Assembly (NCBI GenBank): GCA_945862455.1 | Contig: CAMAXU010000002.1 | Coordinates: forward strand, 257 to 64,256 | Length of the DNA stretch: 64,000 bases | From: Rickettsia typhi | GTDB lineage: Bacteria > Pseudomonadota > Alphaproteobacteria > Rickettsiales > UBA1997 | Direction: 5' to 3' | Shown: in pieces, positions 5,011 through 63,255 of the stretch | Numbering within the stretch: position 1 is the stretch's first letter | How the letters are laid out: each line of letters opens with the position of its first letter | Notes under the pieces: model-generated | What the model was told of the DNA's origin: nothing | What the model saw: the letters and a program-made list of their open reading frames with translations, nothing else | The model's database searches: none | Position numbers and translations under genes: made by a program

Positions 5011-5699
5011 GCGTAAAATTCCATTTTTTTGGCAAAGATTGTATAGTTGATCGCGCGATTACTGATCGCAAAGATTTAAAGCGATCCTTGCTCGAGAAGG
5101 GTTTTGAGTTTGATGTAATTCAATTTGTGAATCAGGTTCATAGTAACAATGTAATTACAATTGATGCACATAGTAAAATTCATGGTGATCAAAATTTACC
5201 AAAAGCAGATGCAATTGTAACCAATTTAAAAAAAGTTGTGATTGGTGTTTTTACAGCAGATTGCGCTCCGATTTTTTTATATGATGAAGAGAGAAAAATT
5301 GTTGCCGTTATTCATGCTGGATGGAAAGGAGCCAAGAATGGCGTGATTAAATCTACTATTACAGAAATGAAAAAATTAGGTGCAAAAAATATTATAGCCT
5401 TAATTGGACCGATGATTCAGCAAAAATCTTATGAAGTTTCGCAAGAATTTTTTGATGATTTTACCAGCGAAGATGAAGGAAATAAAATATTTTTTGCAGA
5501 TGGCAACAAAGCGGATAAACATATGTTTGATTTGCCGAGTTATGTAGGAAAAAAATTATGTGAGGAAGGGATTTTTGAAATTAAAAATTCAGGAATTGAT
5601 ACTTATGAAAATGAGAAAGAATTTTTTAGCTACAGAAGATCGACGCATCGCGCGGAAGTAGATTGCGGAAGAAATATTTCGGTGATTGCGCTGGGATAA
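5007..5699 (+). CDS. pgeF: laccase-domain / peptidoglycan editing factor PgeF (YfiH family)
   Basis: QVHSNNV, DAIVTN, TADCAPIF, HAGWKGA and FFSYRR motifs. ATGA overlap with thrB. Confidence 0.85.
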   Translation: MSVKFHFFGKDCIVDRAITDRKDLKRSLLEKGFEFDVIQFVNQVHSNNVITIDAHSKIHGDQNLPKADAIVTNLKKVVIGVFTADCAPIFLYDEERKIVAVIHAGWKGAKNGVIKSTITEMKKLGAKNIIALIGPMIQQKSYEVSQEFFDDFTSEDEGNKIFFADGNKADKHMFDLPSYVGKKLCEEGIFEIKNSGIDTYENEKEFFSYRRSTHRAEVDCGRNISVIALG

Positions 5700-5770: not shown

Positions 5771-5833
5771 CTTCGTTAACACTTCATCTCGATTGCTTTT
5801 TGCGGATCAATCGAGATGAAGTGTTAACGAAAG
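5771..5833. repeat. perfect 25-bp-stem palindrome immediately 3' of tRNA-Phe
   Basis: cttcgttaacacttcatctcgattg / caatcgagatgaagtgttaacgaaag around a 9-13 nt loop. It may terminate the tRNA transcript. Confidence 0.75.
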
Positions 5834-5913: not shown

Positions 5914-5918
5914 ATAAT

Positions 5919-6052
5919 GAGTCTGTCTCGTAAATCAAGCTTTTCGCAATTCTGATTTTTTTGAAACGCACGTACATCTGGGTACGCTTACCTTTCAAAA
6001 AAATCAGAATCACAAAAATTTCTTAGAAAATTTTGATTTACGCAACAGACTT
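5919..6052. repeat. nested palindromic element, family PE-4
   Basis: TIRs gagtctgtctcgtaaatcaa / ttgatttacgcaacagact; inner repeat gcaattctgatttttttgaaa / tttcaaaaaaatcagaatcac. The termini match the mini-element in the GNAT gene at 63016..63061. Confidence 0.8.
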
Positions 6053-6141
6053 ATAATTTATTTCTACTCAAAACGAAGGCGTGCAAGCTAAGAATGGTCT
6101 TTTATTTTGCAAGCTTGCTTAAAAATTAATTTCAAAAATTT

Positions 6142-8211: not shown

Positions 8212-8318
8212 ATATACCAAATTAACTATCTCTTGATAGCCATAACTTTGTCTTTTTGGTAAAAATTTGCTCAGAAATACTTCGTTAGCGCTATTAAGAG
8301 ATAGTTAATTTGGTATAT
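8212..8318. repeat. nested palindromic element, family PE-1 (short form)
   Basis: TIRs atataccaaattaactatctcttgatagc / gctattaagagatagttaatttggtatat. Core tctttttggtaaaaatttgctcagaaatacttcg, with the central hairpin deleted relative to copies 964 and 47008. Confidence 0.8.
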
Positions 8319-19834: not shown

Positions 19835-19959
19835 GAATTAGACACTGTTAGCCAATTAATTTTATTCCATATTTAGCTCTATAAATATTTACCAAAATTT
19901 TACTAAAAAAGCGCTCAAAATCTGAAATAAAATTAATTAGCTAACAGCGTCTAAGAATT
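19835..19959. repeat. palindromic element, family PE-5
   Basis: Arms ..aattagacactgttagccaattaatttta / taaaattaattagctaacagcgtctaagaatt. An arm remnant lies at 38249..38272. Confidence 0.75.
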
Positions 19960-22876: not shown

Positions 22877-22926
22877 ATGTAATGTTAAGCCTGTCAAATC
22901 ATGCTTCGACAGGCTTAACATTACAT
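22877..22926. repeat. 19-bp-stem palindrome after uvrA (family PE-6 motif)
   Basis: atgtaatgttaagcctgtc / gacaggcttaacattacat. It shares the 14-mer cttcgacaggctta with the hairpin at 28525..28551. Confidence 0.7.
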
Positions 22927-35433: not shown

Positions 35434-35441
35434 TTGAGTCT

Positions 35442-35640
35442 GTATCTAACTCGTATGGACCCCGTCGTGAAGACGGGGTGACAGTGGAGGTAGATCTTCC
35501 CATACATGTCGTGAAGACGGGGTGACAGTGGAGGTAGATCTTCCCACGCATGTCGTAAAGACGGGGTTACTGTGGAGTGGAGGTAGATCTTCCTCCACTG
35601 TCACCCCGTCTTCACGACGGGGTCCATACGAGCTAGATAC
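35442..35640. repeat. complex nested palindrome, family PE-2, with internal 44-bp tandem repeats
   Basis: 49-bp arms (35442..35490 / 35592..35640, 1 mismatch) containing gaccccgtcgtgaagacggggtgaca. Between them are about 2.9 head-to-tail copies of gtcgtgaagacggggtgacagtggaggtagatcttccca..cat. Confidence 0.9.
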
Positions 35641-35664
35641 ACGATCATAAAATAAATAAATAAA

Positions 35665-41221: not shown

Positions 41222-41327
41222 AAGACCGAGTGGACCCCGTCTTGAAGACGGGGTGACAATGATTATAGTTTATCCAACTAACTTTACACTTGTCACCCCG
41301 TCTTCAAGACGGGGTCCACTCGGTCTT
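41222..41327. repeat. palindromic element, family PE-2 (simple copy)
   Basis: Perfect 37-bp arms aagaccgagtggaccccgtcttgaagacggggtgaca / tgtcaccccgtcttcaagacggggtccactcggtctt around a 32-bp spacer. Confidence 0.9.
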
Positions 41328-44947: not shown

Positions 44948-46189
44948 ATGTTAATTGTACAAAAATTTGGCGGTACTTCCGTTGGTGATATAGGGCGCAT
45001 AAAAAATGTTGCTAAAAAAGTAAAAGCCGAGCTCGACAAAAAAAATAAAGTTATTGTGGTAGTGTCGGCGATGTCTGGTGTTACTAATCAGCTTGTAGAT
45101 TATTGTAACCAAGTTTCATCTTTAATGTCGGATGAAAGTTTGGCGGAATATGATTCAATTGTCGCAACTGGCGAGCAAATTACTTGCGGTTTGTTGGCTT
45201 TGGAATTGCAGTCGATTGGCTACAAAGCCAGATCTTTTCTGGGCTGGCAACTTCCAATTGCAACTGACGATGTTCATAGCAAGGCTAGAATTGATGTAAT
45301 TGACGACGCCGCTTTATTAAAATCTTTAGAAGAATTTGATGTTGTAGTAATTGCTGGTTTTCAAGGAATTCACCTTGAATCAAATCGGGTTACAACTTTG
45401 GGACGCGGCGGTTCTGATACTTCGGCTGTTGCAATTGCAGCGGCAGTAAAAGCTGATTTATGTGATATTTACACCGACGTAAATGGGGTTTACACAACAG
45501 ATCCACGCATCACCGATAAAGCCAGAAAATTGAAAAAAGTTACCTACGAAGAAATGCTAGAAATGGCATATAGCGGTTCGAAAGTTTTGCAAACTCGTTC
45601 AGTTGCAATGGCGATGGCGCATAATGTGCGGGTGCGAGTTTTATCAACTTTTGAAGATGTTACAGAATTATCGGGAACAATCTTAGTAAATAATAACGAG
45701 GAAATCATGGAAAGAAGAGTTATCACTGGCATTAGCTATAGCAAAAATGAAGTTCATATCACGCTTGAAAAAATGCCCGATCATCCGGGTCTTTCAGCGG
45801 CAATTTTTGGTGTGTTAGCACAAAAAGAAGTAAATGTTGATATGATTGTGCAAAATATCAGTGCTGATGGAAAATTTGTTGATATAACTTTTACAACCGG
45901 AAAAGAAGAAATTGAGCGCGCCCGCTTGGCGATTGAATCAATTAAGGATGAAGTAAAATACGCCGAATTAAAAATTGACGATAATATTGCAAAAATTTCG
46001 GTAATCGGCGTGGGCATGATTAGCCATTCTGGCGTTGCGCATACAATGTTTAAAACTTTGGCCGATAAAGGAATTAACCTGCTTTTGATTTCTACTTCTG
46101 AAATTAAAATTTCGGTTTTGATTGCGAAAGAATATGGCGAATTAGCAGTGCGTGTGTTGCATGATGCTTATGGCTTGAGTAAGGCTTAG
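44948..46189 (+). CDS. lysC: aspartate kinase
   Basis: VQKFGGTSV, VVSAM.G.T, GRGGSDT, and two C-terminal ACT domains. Confidence 0.95.
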   Translation: MLIVQKFGGTSVGDIGRIKNVAKKVKAELDKKNKVIVVVSAMSGVTNQLVDYCNQVSSLMSDESLAEYDSIVATGEQITCGLLALELQSIGYKARSFLGWQLPIATDDVHSKARIDVIDDAALLKSLEEFDVVVIAGFQGIHLESNRVTTLGRGGSDTSAVAIAAAVKADLCDIYTDVNGVYTTDPRITDKARKLKKVTYEEMLEMAYSGSKVLQTRSVAMAMAHNVRVRVLSTFEDVTELSGTILVNNNEEIMERRVITGISYSKNEVHITLEKMPDHPGLSAAIFGVLAQKEVNVDMIVQNISADGKFVDITFTTGKEEIERARLAIESIKDEVKYAELKIDDNIAKISVIGVGMISHSGVAHTMFKTLADKGINLLLISTSEIKISVLIAKEYGELAVRVLHDAYGLSKA

Positions 46190-46192
46190 TTT

Positions 46193-46242
46193 TATTGAGA
46201 TTATTAAGATCCTGAACTTGCTTCAGGATCTAATTCTAATCA
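46193..46242. repeat. short palindrome between lysC and birA
   Basis: ttgagattattaagatcctgaa cttgc ttcaggatctaattctaatcaa. It shares caagttcaggat/atcctgaa with the prmC insertion. Confidence 0.65.
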
Positions 46243-46250
46243 AAAAATCT

Positions 46251-46982
46251 TTAAGCCACATCTGCCGCCGAAATTTTAAGAATTTTCTCGCCAGTTTTCA
46301 AAACTAAATTTCCCTCTTCATCCAAATCTTCAAAAATTCCTTCGATTTTTTCTTCATCAAGTTTCACCGTAATTTTCTCGCCTAATTTATAAGCATTTTC
46401 CAGCCATAATTTTCTTATGCCTTTAAATCCAAAATCATGCCAATTTTGGTAAAGTTTTTCAAATTCATCCAAGAAATTTTGTAGTGCTAATTCTATTGAA
46501 ATTGTGATTTCAAAATCTTTCAAATTTCCCGCTGGAAAAATTACATTATTTGGATTTGACTCAATATTTAAGCCAATTCCCAAAACTACAAATTCGCAAT
46601 TTTCACCAGAAATTTTACTTTCTAAAAGCAATCCCGCGACTTTTTTTTCATCAATTAAAAGATCATTTGGCCATTTTGCCAAAACAGAATTTTTAGCAAT
46701 TTTCGCGATTGAATTTCTAAGCGCCGTAATTGCGATAAAAGAAATTTGGAAAATTTCTGCAGCGGAAATTTTTGGTTGCAAAACCAAAGAAAAATAAAGA
46801 TTTCCTGATGGTGAAATCCAAGCGCGATCTTTTCTGCCGCGTCCTTGAGTTTGAAAGCGGGCGAGGATAATTTCATTTTCAGAAATCTGGCGTGAATTTG
46901 CTAAACCAAAAGCCTGTGAATTGGTGCTAGATAATTCGTTAAATTCATGGATGGTGAAATTTTTGTAAGTCCAGTTTTTCAT
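46251..46982 (-). CDS. birA: biotin--[acetyl-CoA-carboxylase] ligase (class I, no HTH)
   Basis: QTQGRGRKDRAWISPSGNLYFS and KWPNDLL. Confidence 0.9.
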   Translation of the reverse strand: MKNWTYKNFTIHEFNELSSTNSQAFGLANSRQISENEIILARFQTQGRGRKDRAWISPSGNLYFSLVLQPKISAAEIFQISFIAITALRNSIAKIAKNSVLAKWPNDLLIDEKKVAGLLLESKISGENCEFVVLGIGLNIESNPNNVIFPAGNLKDFEITISIELALQNFLDEFEKLYQNWHDFGFKGIRKLWLENAYKLGEKITVKLDEEKIEGIFEDLDEEGNLVLKTGEKILKISAADVA

Positions 46983-47007
46983 GGTTATTTTGGTTTAAAT
47001 TTATCTG

Positions 47008-47168
47008 ATACCAAGTTGCGATCAAAAAGTGAGTAAATAACTGCAGAATTTTGGTAAAAATTTGCTCGAATAATGACGCTGTATCCCTGATACAGCTTAC
47101 ATTATCTGTCGCAATTTTTCCTCAAAATTTCTTTATTATTTACTCACTTTTTGATCTCAACTTGGTAT
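47008..47168. repeat. nested palindromic element, family PE-1 (full copy)
   Basis: TIRs ataccaagttgcgatcaaaaagtgagtaaataa / ttatttactcactttttgatctcaacttggtat. Core ttttggtaaaaatttgctcgaataatga + hairpin (gctgtatc/gatacagc) + cattatctgtcgcaatttttcctcaaaa. Confidence 0.85.
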
Positions 47169-47924
47169 GACAAAAATCCAGTTTGATTCGTCGGATAATT
47201 TTTTTTCGAAGCGATATTTTTCTTCTTTAAATTCTTTTAAATCTTGCGGATTAGAAATTTTATTTTTAATGGCAAAATTCGTCATTAATCCGCGGGCTTT
47301 TTTAGCCTTAATTCCGATTATTTTTAGCGCATCACCTTTCTTTTCTTTAAAGGCAATATTGATAATTTTTGGTTCAATTTTTTTCAAATTTAGTGCCGAA
47401 AAATATTCTTCTGATGCTAAATTTATAATCGGATTTCCGCTCGCTTCATCATTAAAATAATCGGTAATTTTATCGCCCCAAAATTCATAAAGATTTTTTG
47501 ATAAAAATTTAAATTTTTTAAAATCAGTTCCCATTTCCAAGCGATAAGGTTGCATTAAATCTAGCGGTTTTAAAACTCCATAAAAGCCCGATAAAATTCG
47601 CACAGTTTTTTGGGCAAAATCAAAATCTTTTTTAGTAAAATTTTTCTTATCAATTCCGGCGTAAACATCGCCGTCAAAAGCCAATAAAGACTGACGTGAA
47701 TTTTTTAGATTATATTTATTTTCAAAATTCTGAAATCTGGCAAAATTCAATTCAGCCAGTTTTTTGCTGATTCCCATCAATTTTTCGAGATCAAAAATGG
47801 AGAATTTTTTTAACCCCAAAGCCAGCTTTTGTGTTTCTATTGCGAAATGTGGAATTGTGAAATTCTCTACATCAAATTTTGTGTCGTAATCTAGTGATTT
47901 AGCGGGTGAAAGAAGGATTAACAT
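47157..47924 (-). CDS. yaaA: peroxide stress protein YaaA (UPF0246)
   Basis: MLILLSPAKSLDY, YRLEM. The last 4 codons including the stop lie inside the PE-1 right arm. Confidence 0.9.
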   Translation of the reverse strand: MLILLSPAKSLDYDTKFDVENFTIPHFAIETQKLALGLKKFSIFDLEKLMGISKKLAELNFARFQNFENKYNLKNSRQSLLAFDGDVYAGIDKKNFTKKDFDFAQKTVRILSGFYGVLKPLDLMQPYRLEMGTDFKKFKFLSKNLYEFWGDKITDYFNDEASGNPIINLASEEYFSALNLKKIEPKIINIAFKEKKGDALKIIGIKAKKARGLMTNFAIKNKISNPQDLKEFKEEKYRFEKKLSDESNWIFVIPS

Positions 47925-49937: not shown

Positions 49938-49972
49938 TATTCATGCTTGATTTGTGACAGAGCCAAAATCTA

Positions 49973-55023: not shown

Positions 55024-56526
55024 ATGAGCAAGAATATCGTAGTTAAATTAATAATTCTTTTAGTTGTTTCAGCGCTGGTTTATAGCGTATTCTGGTTCTT
55101 TAAAGTTGGTCAGGTTGAAAAGCAGGTGAAAAATTTCATCAGCAAAAATAGTGCTAACATTTCAGTTGGCGACATTTCAGTTTCTGGTTTTCCTCTTTCG
55201 CAGAAAATCACAATCCATGATCTCAAATTTACCATTCCAAGTCCATTGTTCAATAAGCGCCAAGTGATTGTAAAAATGCTTGAAGCCAAAACAGGAATTT
55301 TCTCTTCTGAATTTATAGTTACTTTGCCAGAGCCTGTTACAGTTGATTCTGAAGGCAATATTATGACTGTTGAATTTACTAAGGAACCTGAAATTAAAGC
55401 TTCAATTTCTGAAGGCAGAATTTATAAATTTTCTTATCATGATTTTGGTTATAAAATTTCTGACATCGATAAAAATGTTGTTTATGCAGCTACAAGTTCA
55501 GTTTTGAATCTTGAATCTACAGTTGCTGATGATGATAAAATTACTACCAAGGTTACTGCTGACATAAAAGAAATCGAAGGCTTTAATGTTCTTGATGTTT
55601 ATAAAAACGCTTTCGAGAAAAAAGTTACTGAAGGTATTAAAACTGGAGAAATTATTCTTGGAAATTCTGCTGTAGTTGCGCCAATTCCTTCTGCTGCTTC
55701 TGGCGATGTTGCTGTAGCTAATGGTGAGGCTACTGCTGCAACTACAACAACAGCTACAGCTGCTCCAGCCTCTGTTTCAACCGATCCCGCTGCAGCTAAT
55801 GTTCCAGCTCCTGCGACAGCTCCTCAAGCAAATGTTGTGACTCCTACTAATCTTAATCCTGCTGCTGCTCCAGCTGTAGCTGCGATTCCTGTTGCGCCAG
55901 ATGGAATGGCAGCCCCTGCTGCGCCAATTCTAACTCCAGCAGATATTGCTGCTGCAGCCATGGCAGCCGCTACCGCAAATATTCAAGTGAAAAGCAATTT
56001 GATGATTGATTTTGAATATATTATGTCTCCAAACCAAACTGAACAGCAAGCACAAATTCCAACTGATCCAACCCAAATTCAGGAAGCTCCAGTTCAATAT
56101 AGCAAAGTGATAAAAATCAATAACTTGGATTTTTCTAACTCACTTTACAAAATACTCATTAATGGCGAAATGAACACTCTCGCTGATGATAATATGCCAT
56201 CTGGTTCGGTGACAGTAAAAGTTGAAAAAATCGGTGCTTTGATTGCTCACATTTCAAGCGGATTTACGCAAATGGTTGAGCAGAAAAAACCAGCTTCGAC
56301 TGAAATTCAAACCAGCGATTTAACTGTTAGTGGTATGCCAACTCAAGATTCTTACCAAGATTTCTTAAAAAGAGTTGCAGCTAATATTGGCGCGGTTTCC
56401 AAAGAATTGGCGGCTAAAAATCCGGTAAGTAAAGACGACATTGCTGAATTTGATATCAGAAGAGAAAAAAATCTGGAATTTTTGGTTAATGAAACCTCGA
56501 TTCGTGAAATTCTTGGAAAATTCTAA
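55024..56526 (+). CDS. membrane-anchored hypothetical protein (DUF2125-like) with Ala/Pro/Thr low-complexity insert
   Basis: N-terminal TM ..LLVVSALVYSVFWFFKVGQVEKQV resembles the DUF2125 N-terminus. There is a central ~100-aa A/P/T-rich tract (DNA 55680..55980). The family call is weak. Confidence 0.5.
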   Translation: MSKNIVVKLIILLVVSALVYSVFWFFKVGQVEKQVKNFISKNSANISVGDISVSGFPLSQKITIHDLKFTIPSPLFNKRQVIVKMLEAKTGIFSSEFIVTLPEPVTVDSEGNIMTVEFTKEPEIKASISEGRIYKFSYHDFGYKISDIDKNVVYAATSSVLNLESTVADDDKITTKVTADIKEIEGFNVLDVYKNAFEKKVTEGIKTGEIILGNSAVVAPIPSAASGDVAVANGEATAATTTTATAAPASVSTDPAAANVPAPATAPQANVVTPTNLNPAAAPAVAAIPVAPDGMAAPAAPILTPADIAAAAMAAATANIQVKSNLMIDFEYIMSPNQTEQQAQIPTDPTQIQEAPVQYSKVIKINNLDFSNSLYKILINGEMNTLADDNMPSGSVTVKVEKIGALIAHISSGFTQMVEQKKPASTEIQTSDLTVSGMPTQDSYQDFLKRVAANIGAVSKELAAKNPVSKDDIAEFDIRREKNLEFLVNETSIREILGKF

Positions 56527-56529
56527 TTA

Positions 56530-57486
56530 ATGAAAATTTCCGACGCGTTATCGCAAAGCCGGAAAGATCTCGATATAAAGGGCGTGAGTAACAGTAAATT
56601 GGACTGTCTAATTTTACTGACTCACGCCCTTTCTTGTTCAAAGGAACATATAATTTTTAATCCGGATGCTGAATTAAATATTGAGCAGCAGGAATTTTTT
56701 TTCAAAATGGTTAAACGCCGCGCCGCGCGCGAACCAGTTTCGCATATTATCGGTAAAAGAGAATTTTTTGGTGAAGATTTTTTTGTAAGTTGCGATGTTT
56801 TAGATCCGCGTCCGGATTCGGAAAGTTTGATTGAGTTGGTTCTGGAAAATTTTCAACAAAAAAATAATTCGCTAAAAATTTTGGAACTTGGAGTTGGTTC
56901 AGGATGTTTGATTATAACTTTGCTTAAAGCTTACAAATCAGCGGTTGGAATTGGAGTTGATATTAGTAAAAAAGCACTAAAAATCGCTAGAGAAAATGCC
57001 GCAACTCATCAAGTTCAAGATCGTTTGCAATTGCTACAATCTGATCTTTTTTCAACTCTAAAGATCTCGAAACAAGTTCAGGATGACGATATTGGTAGTT
57101 TGCAGAATTCATCTCTCTTTGTGAATCATCCTGAATTTGATTCAGGATTTATCCAATCTCAAAGCGCAGAAAACCTTCTGAAATTTGATTTAATAATCTC
57201 AAATCCACCTTATATCGCATCGCAAGAAATTGAGACTTTAGAACCGGAAGTAAAAACCTACGAACCACGTCTAGCATTAGACGGCGGCGTTGATGGTTTT
57301 GATTTTTACAGAAAAATAGCCGCAGAATCCAAAAATTTCTTAAAAGAAAATGGTCGCGTAATTCTAGAAATTGGGATTAATCAACAAGAAAAAATAATTG
57401 AATTTTTTATTAAAAATGAATTTCAATTAATTGAGATGAAGTCTGATTTATCAGGCATTATCCGCTCTTTATGTTTTAAAATTTAA
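56530..57486 (+). CDS. prmC: release factor glutamine N5-methyltransferase PrmC, with ~37-aa in-frame insertion
   Basis: EPV.HIIGK.EF.G, LELGVGSGC, NPPYI. There is extra sequence between SDLFSTL and FDLIISNPPY. Confidence 0.9.
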   Translation: MKISDALSQSRKDLDIKGVSNSKLDCLILLTHALSCSKEHIIFNPDAELNIEQQEFFFKMVKRRAAREPVSHIIGKREFFGEDFFVSCDVLDPRPDSESLIELVLENFQQKNNSLKILELGVGSGCLIITLLKAYKSAVGIGVDISKKALKIARENAATHQVQDRLQLLQSDLFSTLKISKQVQDDDIGSLQNSSLFVNHPEFDSGFIQSQSAENLLKFDLIISNPPYIASQEIETLEPEVKTYEPRLALDGGVDGFDFYRKIAAESKNFLKENGRVILEIGINQQEKIIEFFIKNEFQLIEMKSDLSGIIRSLCFKI

Positions 57487-59421: not shown

Positions 59422-61194
59422 ATGGCTTTTCAGCAAAATCAAAAACAGCGCTTAAACCTCAAAAATCTTTTCGCATTATTGCCATTTTTCAAGCCCTACA
59501 AACGCGAAGTTATGTTGGCTTCGACTGCTTTGTTTGTAACGGCGCTGATGATTTTATTTTTTGGTAAAGTTGTAAAATATATGATTGATTTTGGTTTTTC
59601 GCAGCAGAATCATCTTTTTCTAAATCTAGTTTTGCTCACTTTTATTTTGGCAGTTTTCATCATGGCGATTGCAGGTTATTATCGCTCTTCCTTGATTAAT
59701 TCGGTGGCAGAAAAAGTGATCGCCGATTTACGTAAAAAAGTTTATAATCACATCATTCACGTTTCGGCCGAATTTTTTGAATTAACCAAAGCTGGCGATG
59801 TGATATCGCGCCTTACGGTTGATACCGCTGTGCTTTATAACGTAATCAGCAACACCATTTCATTTTTGCTGCGTAATTCGTTGTTTTTTTTAGGCGGTCT
59901 TTCTTTGTTATTTTTCACCAGTGGCAAACTCAGTTTGTTGACAATGTTGATTATTCCAATCGCCATTTCGCCGATTATTTTTATGGGAAAATCAATCAAA
60001 TCACTTTCTAATAATTCGCAAATGGCATTGTCGTCAGTCGGCGCGCATGTTGAAGAAACGGTGAGTGGCATCAAAACTATTCAATCATATTTATGCGAAG
60101 AAAAAGAAGCGCGCAATTTTTTTGATTTTGTTGATTCGGCGTTAAAAATTTCGCTCGAAAAAATTCGCATAAAATCATTGATGATTGCTTTTGTGATAAC
60201 TTTTTCTTTTGGCGGCATCGCCTTGATTTTGTGGGTTGGCGGGCATGATGTGTTAAGTGGCAAAATCACTTCTGGCGATCTTTCTTCTTTCATTTTTTAT
60301 TCGATTATCACTTCAACATCTTTGGTTTCGTTAAGTCAAATTGCTGGACAATTACAAAGTGCTTCCGCTTCTGCTTCGCGGATTTTTGAGCTTTTGGAAA
60401 TTCAATCTCCCGTCAAAGAAATAGCTCATCCACATCCATTTCCACCAGCAAAAGAAATTACTATAAAATTCCAAGATGTGAATTTTTCTTACCCAAGTCG
60501 CAAAGATTTTGAAGTGTTAAAAAACTTTAATCTGGAAATTAAACCGCATGAAAAAATCGGGATTGTCGGTTCCAGCGGATCTGGAAAAAGCACAATTTTG
60601 CAACTTTTACTACGTTTTTATGATGTTGATTCGGGCATGATTTCACTGAACGGAGTCGACATGCGGGCGCTTTCATTTTCTGATCTGCGCCAAAATTTTT
60701 CTTATATTTCTCAAGATTGTTTTATTTTTTCAGGCACGATTTTTGAAAATATCGCTTACGTTGACAAATCAATCACAGAAGAGCAGGTTGAAAAAATTAT
60801 TGCACAAAATCCGGCGCTCGATTTCATCAATCATTTGCCACAAAAAATGCATAACCAAGTTGGCGAAAAAGGCATTAAACTTTCCGGCGGCGAGCGTCAA
60901 AGAATTGCAATTGCGCGCGCCATTATCAAGGATTCACCGATTTTATTATTAGATGAAGCAACTTCCGCGCTCGATAATCACAATGAAAAAAATATCACCA
61001 ATGCAATTACTAATTTAGCTAAAGAAAAAACCGTAATTACAATTGCGCACAAACTTTCTTCGGTTGCAGCTTCTGATCGAATTATTTTTGTCAAAAATGG
61101 CGAAATAGCCGAAATCGGCTCGCATCAAGAGCTGGTGGCGCAAGATGGCTTTTATAAAAAGATGTATGAAGTTGAAATGTTGGGAGTGATTTAA
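59422..61194 (+). CDS. ABC transporter permease/ATP-binding protein (ABCB/MsbA-like exporter)
   Basis: Six TM helices followed by an NBD: GSSGSGKST, LSGGERQRIAIARA, LLLDEATSALD. Confidence 0.9.
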   Translation: MAFQQNQKQRLNLKNLFALLPFFKPYKREVMLASTALFVTALMILFFGKVVKYMIDFGFSQQNHLFLNLVLLTFILAVFIMAIAGYYRSSLINSVAEKVIADLRKKVYNHIIHVSAEFFELTKAGDVISRLTVDTAVLYNVISNTISFLLRNSLFFLGGLSLLFFTSGKLSLLTMLIIPIAISPIIFMGKSIKSLSNNSQMALSSVGAHVEETVSGIKTIQSYLCEEKEARNFFDFVDSALKISLEKIRIKSLMIAFVITFSFGGIALILWVGGHDVLSGKITSGDLSSFIFYSIITSTSLVSLSQIAGQLQSASASASRIFELLEIQSPVKEIAHPHPFPPAKEITIKFQDVNFSYPSRKDFEVLKNFNLEIKPHEKIGIVGSSGSGKSTILQLLLRFYDVDSGMISLNGVDMRALSFSDLRQNFSYISQDCFIFSGTIFENIAYVDKSITEEQVEKIIAQNPALDFINHLPQKMHNQVGEKGIKLSGGERQRIAIARAIIKDSPILLLDEATSALDNHNEKNITNAITNLAKEKTVITIAHKLSSVAASDRIIFVKNGEIAEIGSHQELVAQDGFYKKMYEVEMLGVI

Positions 61195-62681
61195 TGATCT
61201 TTCCAGCCAATTCTTTTTAAGAAAAATTCATAAGAATCTTCAAAAGTGAAAGTTTTGTTATCGTCGAAAACGATTAATTTATTGGCGATTTGTCTTAAGA
61301 AATGTTCGTCGTGAGTCACGACAATTACAGCACCTTGGAAGTTTTTAATCGCTTCCAAAAGAGCTTCGCAAGATTCCATATCAAGGTGATTTGTTGGTTC
61401 ATCGAGAAGCAATAAATTTACACCTTTCAACAAAATTTTCCCAAGCATCACGCGGCTTTTTTCGCCACCCGAAAGCACAGAAATTTTCTTATTTGCTAAA
61501 TCATTGTTAAACATCATGTTGCTGCAAACCTGACGCACGCGGCTTATCGGAAGTTTTTCATCAACTTTTTGCAACTCTTCATAAACTGTGCGGTTTTTAT
61601 CGAGACGATCAATGTTCATTTGTCCGAAATAGCCAATTTCAGTTTTAGCATTGGTTTTGATATTGCCTTTAAGCGGGATCAAATCTTGCGTGATAAGCTT
61701 TAACAAAGTTGATTTACCTTTGCCGTTTTTACCGATGATGCAGATTTTTTCGCCATCAGCAACTTTGAAACCAAGATTGTGAATCAATAAATGTTCGGGA
61801 TTATAACCAAAGCCAAGATTTTCAGCTTCAACCATATTTTCCTTGCTGGCGTAAGGATTGTGAGTGAATTCAAAATCAAGAGTTGCAACATGCGCCAATT
61901 TTTCTTTCACATCTTGTTTTTCCAACATTTTAACTCGTGATTGCGCGCGACTCGCCATGCTGGCTTTAGCGCCGAAACGATCAATCCATTCTTGAGTTTT
62001 TTGTCTTTGCTTATCTTCGTTGACGCGAGTTTTTTCGTAAATTTCTTCTTCAGCAGCAATTTTTTCGCGAATGCCTTGCGTGTTTCCCGGAACTTTTTTA
62101 AAGGCTTTGCGGTGAATTACCAAAGTGTGTGTAACCACGTCATCCATGAATCCGCGATCGTGAGTGATTAAAATTAATTCGCCTTCCCATTCTTTTAAAA
62201 ATTCTTTTAACCAGCGAATTGAGTGAATGTCGAGATAGTTGGTTGGCTCGTCGAGCAACAACATTTGTGGTTCAACTAAAAGTAATTTTGCCAAATTTAA
62301 TTTAACTTGATAGCCGCCGGAGAATTTTTTTGGATCTTTATAGAGATCGTCGTAAGTAAAGCCCAAGCCGTATAAAATATTTTCACCTTTCCAGCCTTCA
62401 TGCTCGCGATCTTCTGGTAAAACCGAACAAATTTCATCTAAAACTGTTTCGTGAGTGAAATGAATATGTTGCTCCAAATGCCCAATTCTGTAGCCGCGTG
62501 GAATTTCTACGGCACCCGAATCTGGCTCAAGTTTTTTTAGGATTAATTTTAGAAAAGTAGATTTGCCACTTCCGTTGCGCCCAATCAAACCAACCTTCTC
62601 ACGACCGTTAATGATGAAACTGGCATCGGTAAAAACATCATGCCCTGAAAATGAAATAGATAAATCTTTAACTCTGATCAC
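61191..62681 (-). CDS. ABC-F family ATPase
   Basis: Two tandem NBDs (GRNGSGKST, FSGGYQ; GKNGKGKST, LSGGEKSR) with no TM region. GTG start. Confidence 0.88.
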   Translation of the reverse strand: MIRVKDLSISFSGHDVFTDASFIINGREKVGLIGRNGSGKSTFLKLILKKLEPDSGAVEIPRGYRIGHLEQHIHFTHETVLDEICSVLPEDREHEGWKGENILYGLGFTYDDLYKDPKKFSGGYQVKLNLAKLLLVEPQMLLLDEPTNYLDIHSIRWLKEFLKEWEGELILITHDRGFMDDVVTHTLVIHRKAFKKVPGNTQGIREKIAAEEEIYEKTRVNEDKQRQKTQEWIDRFGAKASMASRAQSRVKMLEKQDVKEKLAHVATLDFEFTHNPYASKENMVEAENLGFGYNPEHLLIHNLGFKVADGEKICIIGKNGKGKSTLLKLITQDLIPLKGNIKTNAKTEIGYFGQMNIDRLDKNRTVYEELQKVDEKLPISRVRQVCSNMMFNNDLANKKISVLSGGEKSRVMLGKILLKGVNLLLLDEPTNHLDMESCEALLEAIKNFQGAVIVVTHDEHFLRQIANKLIVFDDNKTFTFEDSYEFFLKRIGWKDH

Positions 62682-62703: not shown

Positions 62704-63255
62704 TTATAATTCGCGAAACATTATGTAAGCATCAACATAGCCTAAAACCTTATGGTTAAAGCCTTGAGGAATGGTACCAATAGTTTTAAATCCGACTGAT
62801 TGCCATAAGTTTACAGCAGCTTTATTTGTGGAAACAACAAAATTAAATTGCATTGCTTTATAGCCCAATTCTTTTGCGGTGCTAATTGAATGAAGTGCGA
62901 GAGATTTTCCAATCCCAAACCCGCGTTTATTTTCATCAACAATATAACTAGCATTTGCAATATGTGAGCCACGATCTACTCGATTTGGTTTGATTAAATA
63001 AACACCCACAATGAGTCTGTCGCAAATCAAAATTTTCTAAGAAATTTTGATTTGCGACAGATTCACAATTTCGTCATCAATTTTTGCCACAAAAGTTTTA
63101 GCCGATTTATTCATCCATTTGGCGTAAGCTTCTTCTTTTGTGGTTTCATCATCATTTACATAAGTTTCGCCGGCGGAAATTACACTTTTAAAAATGCGCC
63201 AAATCTCATCAAAATTTTCTGTAGTTGCGAGTGTGATTTTAATGTTTAATTCCAT
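62704..63255 (-). pseudogene. GNAT-family N-acetyltransferase interrupted by an in-frame TAG inside a palindromic insert
   Basis: ORFs 63037..63255 and 62704..63030 are in the same frame, separated only by TAG (63037..63039). The joined product has the GNAT core (..RGFGIGK.L..H.I..AKELGYKAMQFN.V..TN..AV.LW...GF). Confidence 0.75.
63016..63061. repeat. PE-4 mini-element (arms only) inside the GNAT gene
   Basis: 20-bp perfect arms tctgtcgcaaatcaaaattt / aaattttgatttgcgacaga around tctaag. The arms match the PE-4 termini at 5919..6052. Confidence 0.85.

Follow-up and report, generated by a model that had tools for sequence, protein, structure and literature searches.

A probable decayed dimer of CGTC-tagged palindromic repeats carried in frame within prmC of an uncultured alphaproteobacterial lineage

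The described systems closest to the in-frame insert reported here, which lies within prmC (release-factor N5-glutamine methyltransferase) in a 64,000-nt stretch of contig CAMAXU010000002.1 (assembly GCA_945862455.1, positions 257 to 64,256; hereafter the window), are the CGTC-tagged repetitive extragenic palindromic sequences (REPs) and the Rickettsia palindromic elements (RPEs). The CGTC-tagged REP superfamily was defined by Di Nocera, De Gregorio and Rocco (2013, BMC Genomics 14:522; PMC3733652). Each unit has a CGTC or TGTC (or CCTC) tag, an 8-9-bp stem starting A-T, a 4-5-nt loop and a 3-bp tail of approximately CCA (PMC3733652). Units occur mostly as dimers, with spacers of 20-100 bp that may hold small stem-loops; some are intragenic, and no dedicated transposase is associated with them (PMC3733652). 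In this scheme, CGTC-1 unites Neisseria dRS3 with R. conorii RPE-6, and CGTC-4 corresponds to RPE-4 (PMC3733652). RPEs, as related in passages of PMC3733652 and PMC10969869, are palindromic repeats of about 100-150 bp that are inserted in frame into housekeeping genes, which stay active (Ogata et al., 2000, 2002; Claverie and Ogata, 2003), and the encoded peptide is thought, according to the same passages, to sit at the protein surface.

A tagged unit has also been listed in a protein that bears on the present gene. In a supplementary table of PMC3733652, R. conorii RC1314 (524 aa) is entered as a tRNA-G-N7-methyltransferase with a CGTC-1 unit at residues 109-117. Its length equals that of the NCBIfam model for bifunctional PrmC/TrmB (NF002421, 524 positions); thus, an earlier record of a tagged REP within a prmC homologue seems to exist, at another site. 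Chenal et al. (2025, Nat Commun 16:2388; PMC11893778) showed that the GIY-YIG nuclease SsnA binds and cuts the NTS repeat CGTCATTCCCGCGMAVGCGGGAATCYRG (Neisseria dRS3/NTS) as single-stranded DNA (ssDNA). Related "SRM" hairpins flank thousands of Ssn homologues, and Rickettsia, Wolbachia and Sphingomonas are among the genomes rich in them; the GTC before and the C after the palindrome are the positions that matter for SsnA binding and cleavage (PMC11893778).

The prmC insert of the window is most probably a decayed head-to-head dimer of CGTC-tagged REPs, carried in frame in PrmC as a tolerated mobile-repeat passenger. It consists of two inverted copies of a 21-nt hairpin, ATCCTGAA-N5-TTCAGGAT, whose CGTC tags face each other across a 36-38-nt spacer (Table 1). 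Better-preserved copies are found in the related loci L007, L006 and L003, in the order unit 1, spacer, unit 2 and 3' part. Unit 1 is intact in L006 and L007 (ATCCTGAA-ACAAG-TTCAGGAT-GACG). In all three loci, the 38-nt spacer has a small hairpin of its own (GAAGATGAgtTCATCTTC), unit 2 reads CGTC-ATCCTGAA-CTTGA-TTCAGGAT-CTA, and the copy ends in the non-palindromic 3' part ..TCTCAAAGCGCAGAAAAYCTT, a segment kept by all insert-bearing relatives.

Table 1. Positions in the window of the host gene, the parts of its insert and the related intergenic hairpin.
Feature	Position	Strand	Basis
prmC (release-factor N5-glutamine methyltransferase), host gene	56530..57486	+	TIGR03534, PF17827, PF05175
In-frame insert, 111 nt = residues S180-L216 (SKQVQDDDIGSLQNSSLFVNHPEFDSGFIQSQSAENL)	57067..57177	+	alignment to insert-free allele L001
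Unit 1, decayed hairpin ATCTCGAA-ACAAG-TTCAGGAT and tag GACG (CGTC on the other strand)	57064..57088	+	
Spacer between units, inverted relative to relatives and with a 3-nt deletion	57089..57123	+	
Unit 2, decayed tag AATC (CGTC in L007), hairpin ATCCTGAAT-TTG-ATTCAGGAT, 3-nt tail	57124..57151	+	
Insert 3' part TCCAATCTCAAAGCGCAGAAAACCTT, peptide ..QSQSAENL, non-palindromic	57152..57177	+	
Solo hairpin ATCCTGAA-CTTGC-TTCAGGAT, without CGTC tag	46209..46229	.	stem family of prmC insert
Tagged unit written as ssDNA oligonucleotide: CGTCATCCTGAACTTGTTTCAGGATCTA			

The copy in the window is a decayed variant. Its tag GACG is retained at 57085-88 and the second tag has become AATC. The hairpin of unit 2, at 57128-57148, is perfect (9 bp with a 3-nt loop). 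The arms at 57064-86 and 57126-48 are 83% complementary across 23 nt, and within them TTCAGGATGA (57077-86) base-pairs with TCATCCTGAA (57126-35). An initial annotation, made from the letters alone, had called the insert palindromic. The arms and the hairpin are indeed there, but the folding energy of the window copy as DNA (-11.5 kcal/mol, z = -1.7) is not significant alone, since 13 of 200 shuffles fold equally well. The L007 copy folds at -31 kcal/mol (z = -9.9). With regard to features of miniature inverted-repeat transposable elements, inverted arms are present; the 6-nt direct repeat CTGAAA flanks the L007 insert but overlaps unit 1. A reading of the insert as an intein or intron was rejected, as it gave no ribozyme matches, is only 37 aa long and shows no catalytic motif by eye.

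The host gene is intact. Its 318-aa product scores 262.6 bits against TIGR03534, the PrmC equivalog model (cut-off 199.1), carries the PrmC N-terminal domain (PF17827) together with PF05175, and keeps the GxGxG and NPPY motifs; the TIGR03534 match is split in two, covering residues 27-182 and about 218-299. The assignment to prmC made in the initial annotation therefore stands, whereas its word "essential" goes too far: PrmC is better called near-essential, as established for E. coli K-12. The in-frame insertion of about 37 aa that it had described was delimited by alignment to the insert-free allele of the related locus L001, in which TTAAAGATC and CTGAAATTTGAC are joined directly. It lies between strand beta3 and the beta4/NPPY motif, its placement slides by the 6-nt direct repeat CTGAAA, and in most relatives it measures 114 nt, compared with 111 nt in the window. 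The peptide and DNA strings quoted for it were recovered where they had been placed.

Against most orthologues, the segment stands out as inserted sequence, as had been claimed. From the SD.F motif to KFDLIISNPPY there are 10 residues or fewer in 82 of 126 PrmC homologues and more than 20 in 30 of them, and the stretch that measures 41 residues in the window PrmC is only about 6 residues long in T. maritima HemK. Among 5.8 billion proteins searched, close relatives at 86-99% identity had 318-319 aa; the matches also included one variant of 303 aa and, at 78-81% overall identity, proteins of 281-283 aa that lack the segment.

The AlphaFold2 model of the window PrmC has a mean predicted local distance difference test score (pLDDT) of 75.8 with a confident core, and it matches E. 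coli PrmC (2b3t, 1t43) with template modelling (TM) scores of 0.79-0.81. Residues 180-215 fall below a pLDDT of 50, between a helix at 175-179 and the strand FDLIIS (219-224), which runs into NPPY. The initial annotation had put a surface loop forward as a question for structural modelling, and the insert is modelled as a disordered, low-confidence loop on an otherwise PrmC-like fold. This loop would enter the N-terminal end of beta4, at the edge of the Rossmann sheet opposite the S-adenosylmethionine (SAM)/NPPY pocket, because the usual class-I methyltransferase topology puts the connection there. On the DNA level, a terminator scan gave no terminator-like site within or near the insert, and a promoter scan gave 5 promoter-like matches against 3.7 from shuffles, close to chance.

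The hairpin belongs to a dispersed family, one member of which lies elsewhere in the window. The initial annotation had proposed kinship with an intergenic palindrome, and the solo hairpin of Table 1, ATCCTGAACTTGCTTCAGGAT, matches the insert hairpin at 19 of 21 bases and shares an exact 12-mer with 57073-84. It sits in a 61-nt gap between the convergent genes lysC (44948-46189, plus strand) and birA-like (46251-46982, minus strand) and folds well (z = -6.5), yet it is no canonical intrinsic terminator because it has no T-tail. At up to two mismatches, ATCCTGAA-N5-TTCAGGAT has 3 matches in the window against 0.01 expected, the third being 57064-57084 inside the insert, and the octamer ATCCTGAA is over-represented (11 occurrences against 2.7). 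An nhmmer profile of the insert matched this intergenic site as well as the unit GATCCTGAAACAAGTTCAGGATGACG in intergenic DNA of other genomes, namely at L015 2798-2823, L015 7203-7230 and L014 8366-8402, and as a pair at L018 6846-6915. Rather than a homologous segment without nucleotide likeness to intergenic repeats, the relatives of the window PrmC thus carry one that is clearly similar to such repeats.

In addition, 185,579 species genomes were scanned for the pattern ATCCTGAA-N5-TTCAGGATGAC, which has 19 fixed bases. At least 120 stretches matched, against about 4 by chance according to our own estimate; they come from Sphingomonadales, Bacteroidota, Patescibacteria, Gastranaerophilales, Treponema, Elusimicrobiota, Gammaproteobacteria, Rickettsiales and others. 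The figures that follow refer to the 140 units among the matches listed. Because the tag, including its GTC, belonged to the search pattern, these units are no independent test of it. The base after the palindrome, outside the pattern, is C in 122 of 139 units, and the second base is a pyrimidine in 128 of 139, followed by A or C; flanks are otherwise unconserved. The commonest loops are ACAAG (59), ATAAA (23) and TCAAG (21). An inverted partner lies within 150 nt of 67 of the 140 units, and the dimers of this stem type comprise 53 with tags outward and 14 with tags inward. Only 15% of the units fall inside open reading frames (ORFs) of at least 200 codons, compared with 73% of random positions. 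The description of the insert as RPE-like in the initial annotation is upheld: two inverted units of a dispersed repeat family, intergenic here and in many genomes, lie in frame in the gene.

Several further observations were made on members of this family. In other conserved-looking genes, in-frame units occur in a GalU-like gene (L136, about 849; ..ISHPELDSGSLV..), in a FemAB-like gene (L124, about 5833; ..CHPELVSGSSLSSEMPKQVRHDK..) and in a gene for a Cys-rich protein (L031, about 816; ..EILKQVQDDK..). In the alphaproteobacterial metagenome-assembled genome (MAG) ZE-Jul18-95, a tandem array at L054 47-247 alternates ATCCTGAA-TCAAG-TTCAGGATGAC with the sibling hairpin GTCATTGAAGGGCTTGACCCGGAATC, with four exact copies in 200 nt. 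Downstream of units in L043, L056, L097, L101, L128 and L135, short partial "echo" repeats ending in ..GGATGAC are present (e.g., GGTTCAGGATGAC, two or three times), which point to slippage or to recurrent cutting and rejoining of the DNA at the tag. In an Rfam search of L054, L018 and L007 (E up to 1), no family covered the hairpins; the matches on other long palindromes were to plant or animal microRNA (miRNA) and small RNA (sRNA) models, all below gathering scores. Long hairpins at L007 14581-14731 and 9468-9540 matched plant miRNA and Aggregatibacter sRNA models in this sub-gathering range, and they are probably further palindromic repeats, not miRNAs or sRNAs. A literature search for the exact hairpin string gave no match.

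The loop of PrmC that holds the insert has received other repeats in more distant orthologues. At 57-60% identity, other palindromes occupy the same beta3-beta4 loop. The L015 loop has the same stem type as the window in decayed form. Those of L016 and L017 have ATCCTTCGCTTCGCTCAGGATGAC-type arms and encode the peptide ILRFAQDD..HPE (z = -9.45 for L016), and in that of L018 lies a GC-rich pair with CGTC tags (z = -7.1). Further orthologue proteins show single-unit remnants in the loop, such as EILKQVQDD. The presence of at least three sequence-distinct tagged repeats indicates that the loop is either a preferred target or one of few places in PrmC where inserts survive. At a second PrmC site, between ..IFSDK and LKILELGVGSG, the orthologue P0041 (342 aa) has a different in-frame insert of about 40 aa; its peptides are of repeat type (EPRPRNKCGVT..HPALVAGS), and a parallel with the CGTC-1 unit of RC1314 (residues 109-117) is possible.

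Among close relatives, the history of the insert can be followed on a neighbour-joining tree built from prmC and panC (1016 gap-free columns, outgroup L139), in which ((L007, L002, L006), L001) is sister to (L005, (L003, L004, window)). The dimer occurs throughout this species-level clade, the insert-bearing lineages of which differ by up to 9-10% at flanking sites; thus, it entered in or before the clade's common ancestor. Because L001 nests inside insert-bearing lineages, its empty site most likely reflects a secondary deletion between the CTGAAA direct repeats and not the ancestral state, and the GATCCTGAA that it keeps is probably a remnant of unit 1. Complete loss is seen in one lineage (P0009/P0012, on 16 contigs), L005 lacks 48 nt internally, about half of the insert, and in several lineages the insert decays by point mutation. 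The insert is present in at least 7 independent assemblies (ENA, JGI, Logan, NCBI), each with lineage-specific substitutions, and all 7 of 7 DNA variants keep the frame at 111, 114 or 66 nt. The rate of nonsynonymous substitution (dN) in the insert is 2-8 times that in the rest of the gene. Its ratio to the synonymous rate (dN/dS) is 0.17-0.49 in the insert and 0.13-0.27 elsewhere in prmC, all from small counts. In the outgroup L139 (P0010), which has no insert, the site at about 5530-5560 reads AAAGATCCTAAATCCTAAATTCGAC (LKILNPKFD) and holds a tandem ATCCTAA ATCCTAA that is similar to a hairpin arm, as either the remnant of an older insert or a native target.

The least expected feature is an inversion of the spacer in situ, within the coding region. 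The window spacer corresponds to the reverse complement of that found in L002, L003, L004, L006 and L007: aligned with the reverse complement of L003 it reaches 30/39 identity and a score of 19, compared with -10 for the forward alignment and an average of -8 (maximum 3) over 2000 shuffles. Since neither the hairpin loops nor the 3' part is exchanged, the flip is confined to the spacer, and its breakpoints lie inside the 12-nt inverted inner arms TTCAGGATGACG / CGTCATCCTGAA. A flip at these arms keeps the length and thereby the downstream frame. Read in the frame of the flanks, the spacer is open either way (DDDIGSLQNSSLFVNHPE in the window, DDAERKMSSSSNYQYRHPE in L007), and the two orientations encode unrelated peptides. 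The window and L003/L004 have their spacers in opposite orientation at a flank difference of 1.1%, and L005 and P0004-P0007 share the orientation of the window; the P0004 peptide, DDDIVSLKMNSS.., matches the translation of the reverse-complemented L007 spacer. This distribution on the tree calls for at least two flips or an allele exchange.

These observations have to be weighed against other accounts of the insert. If the insert were an adaptive extension of PrmC specific to the lineage (a new interaction surface, for instance), with a likeness to repeats that is historical only, this would explain why it stays in frame across lineages with up to 9-10% flank difference, why its dN/dS stays below 1 and why about a quarter of related PrmCs have this loop expanded. 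This account is nevertheless unlikely, given the complete loss in the P0009/P0012 lineage, the half-deletion in L005, the unrelated peptides that the spacer encodes in its two orientations, the predicted disorder of the insert and the unrelated loop sequences in different orthologues. Even less credit can be given to a local origin, in which direct or inverted duplication of flanking prmC by template switching produced the insert with no mobile repeat. The HQVQD/KQVQD repeats (CAAGTTCAAGAT at 57010, CAAGTTCAGGAT at 57073), the recurrence of AATTTGATT at 57134 and 57182 and of AATCTCAAA at 57155 and 57195, and the resemblance of the empty allele GATCCTGAAATTTGAC to one hairpin arm are what such a process might leave. 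However, once multiple testing is allowed for, the halves of the insert align to the flanks no better than shuffles do (p = 0.03-0.32). The arms belong exactly to a family with at least 120 unrelated genomic stretches, and the empty allele is a derived deletion whose "half site" is probably the remnant of unit 1. An assembly or gene-calling artefact has hardly any probability at all: the metagenomic origin of the relatives is the only point that would suggest one, and it is met by the independent assemblies, each with lineage-specific substitutions, that carry the insert.

The spacer inversion invites accounts of a different kind. A programmed invertible coding cassette, by which PrmC is switched between two loop isoforms (phase variation), would fit the presence of both orientations among relatives with 1.1% flank difference, the two or more flips or allele exchange that the tree needs and the frame that is open both ways. 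It is very improbable nonetheless, as no invertase or recombinase gene was noticed beside prmC in the window or among the called genes of related loci, the arms are decaying in several lineages, and any 12-24-nt inverted repeat can flip by general recombination or template switching. It is likewise doubtful, though slightly less so, that the repeat dimer is an intragenic flip-flop whose hairpins are perhaps also targets of an Ssn nuclease that limits replacement of prmC by transformation. Recombination at the 12-nt inner arms would then reverse the 36-38-nt spacer and give a surface loop of ..DDDIGSLQNSSLFVNH.. or ..DDGKREMSSSSNYQYRH... If this were true and populations flipped the spacer often, switchable peptides in housekeeping proteins would have a general source in tagged REP dimers, one that needs no recombinase.

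The preferred reading, that of a decayed tagged-REP dimer carried as a passenger, also has points that weigh against it. Neither the 64-kb window nor about 1.1 Mb of the other loci analysed contained a second full copy of 111-114 nt (units, spacer and 3' part), and a search of the type-B insert peptide against the 5.8 billion proteins gave no candidates; that the dimer moves as a single piece is thus no more than a possibility. The one allele of the clade that lacks the insert arose by secondary deletion, hence no pre-insertion site has been seen. A dN/dS below 1 in the insert may leave room for some constraint on the peptide or the DNA, and we infer, rather than observe, its translation and its placement relative to the active site. 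For the link to Ssn, the SRM pattern HGTCWYN(0-2)YYVSBRHN(0-5)WNVSBRGN(0-2)RNCYNB fits NTS, not this AT-rich unit, and the 64-kb window has no Ssn homologue (cd10448 GIY-YIG). A GIY-YIG match inside an ABC-F ATPase gene (61191-62681) was discarded as spurious.

Under the preferred reading, the original insertion would have been made by whatever machinery spreads CGTC-tagged repeats. An Ssn-type GIY-YIG nuclease acting on hairpins extruded in ssDNA is the leading candidate, and replication template switching between copies is the alternative. The insert has since decayed through point mutations, has been deleted whole between short direct repeats in one lineage and in part in another, and has had its spacer flipped at least twice; selection would act solely to keep PrmC open and folded, the peptide being a tolerated passenger. 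The case extends the "protein-coding palindrome" phenomenon, best known from Rickettsia, to an uncultured alphaproteobacterial lineage known from metagenome assemblies only, and ties it to hairpins whose sequence is almost the same in many bacterial phyla. Close relatives record its stages in one gene, from a well-preserved dimer through point decay to partial or complete deletion and spacer inversion in situ. As a recurrent landing or tolerance site for at least three distinct tagged palindromes, the beta3-beta4 loop of PrmC offers a natural system for how CGTC-tagged REPs spread, with Ssn as a candidate partner, and how proteins absorb them.

The window is palindrome-rich overall, and several other repeats were recorded in it. 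A second tagged-palindrome family, (T)GTCACCCCGTCTTCA[A/C]GACGGGGTCC, has exact units at 35457-82 (minus), 35600-25 (plus), 41232-57 (minus) and 41292-317 (plus), which form tag-inward dimers with 38-60-nt arms at 35441-35641 and 41222-41327. Both dimer sites are intergenic (tsaE-like/rluD-like and ftsY/trpE); the units resemble the CGTC/TGTC REP layout, but their stem starts AC. An imperfect palindrome at 46999-47177 (67-nt arms, 79% complementary, 45-nt centre) lies between the birA-like gene and the next minus-strand gene, overlapping the 3' end of the latter (47157-47924). A small repeat, GAGTCTGTCGCAAATCAA, has 3 matches at up to two mismatches against 0.02 expected; it is recorded at 49947-49964 and at 63012-63065, where it makes a 24-nt-arm palindrome, and a similar string lies within the 5914-6057 palindrome. 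Further long inverted repeats are found at 5772-5831 (a perfect palindrome with 24-nt arms), 8212-8318, 19838-19954 and 22877-22926. Upstream of prmC, a DUF2125-like gene at 55024-56526 (500 aa) encodes an Ala/Pro/Thr-rich low-complexity stretch at about aa 225-330, and its DNA has a 37-nt imperfect inverted repeat at 55733-55900.

Compared with the known systems, the insert shares its layout with the CGTC-tagged REPs. The unpaired CGTC tag is present (..TTCAGGAT-GACG and CGTC-ATCCTGAA.. in L007 and L006; one tag in the window), as are the 8-bp stem ATCCTGAA/TTCAGGAT starting AT, the 5-nt loop and a short tail starting C, the last at positions outside the search pattern. The repeats are likewise dispersed, mostly intergenic, often inverted dimers, spread over broad phyla and without an adjacent transposase gene, and they include in-frame intragenic cases. 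At the level of individual families the match is by description only: an 8-bp stem with a 5-nt loop fits the text on family 2 in the relevant passage of PMC3733652, and "CCTGAA" is absent from the supplementary files of that paper that were searched. Its passage on dimers reports head-to-head (HH) forms as predominant, whereas tag-outward dimers outnumber tag-inward ones by 53 to 14 among the matches listed here; "head" may be defined differently in the two counts. The GTAG REPs and REPINs, which RAYT transposases mobilise, as cited in PMC3733652, similarly combine two inverted hairpin units and a spacer into a larger, non-autonomous hairpin. They differ in their tag, which is GTAG and not CGTC, and no RAYT gene was noticed in the examined parts of the window or in related loci.

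The tag-plus-stem strings led to the Ssn paper (PMC11893778) through the sibling motif GTCATTCCCGC. The layout CGTC-AT..palindrome..AT-C-Y is identical to that of NTS. A GTC upstream of the palindrome is found in L006, L007, L003 and one arm of the window, and a C follows the palindrome in 122 of 139 of the units listed. The SRM regular expression matched at no position of the window, including its other repeat, and an ssn gene lies near units in only 2 of 120 unit-bearing loci among the matches listed (Ssn-like genes in L066 and L116). With RPEs, the insert has in common that it is an in-frame palindromic repeat of 111-114 nt, that all variants keep the frame and that the conserved gene is intact. 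It differs in that its host is an uncultured alphaproteobacterial lineage, not Rickettsia, with related proteins labelled as Rickettsiales or Pelagibacterales MAGs, and in that only one full-length copy was seen in the window and the other loci analysed. By layout, it shares the CGTC-tagged REP superfamily with RPE-4 and RPE-6, at a level above any named RPE family. The prmC insert shows no new kind of element; it is an example of a known phenomenon.

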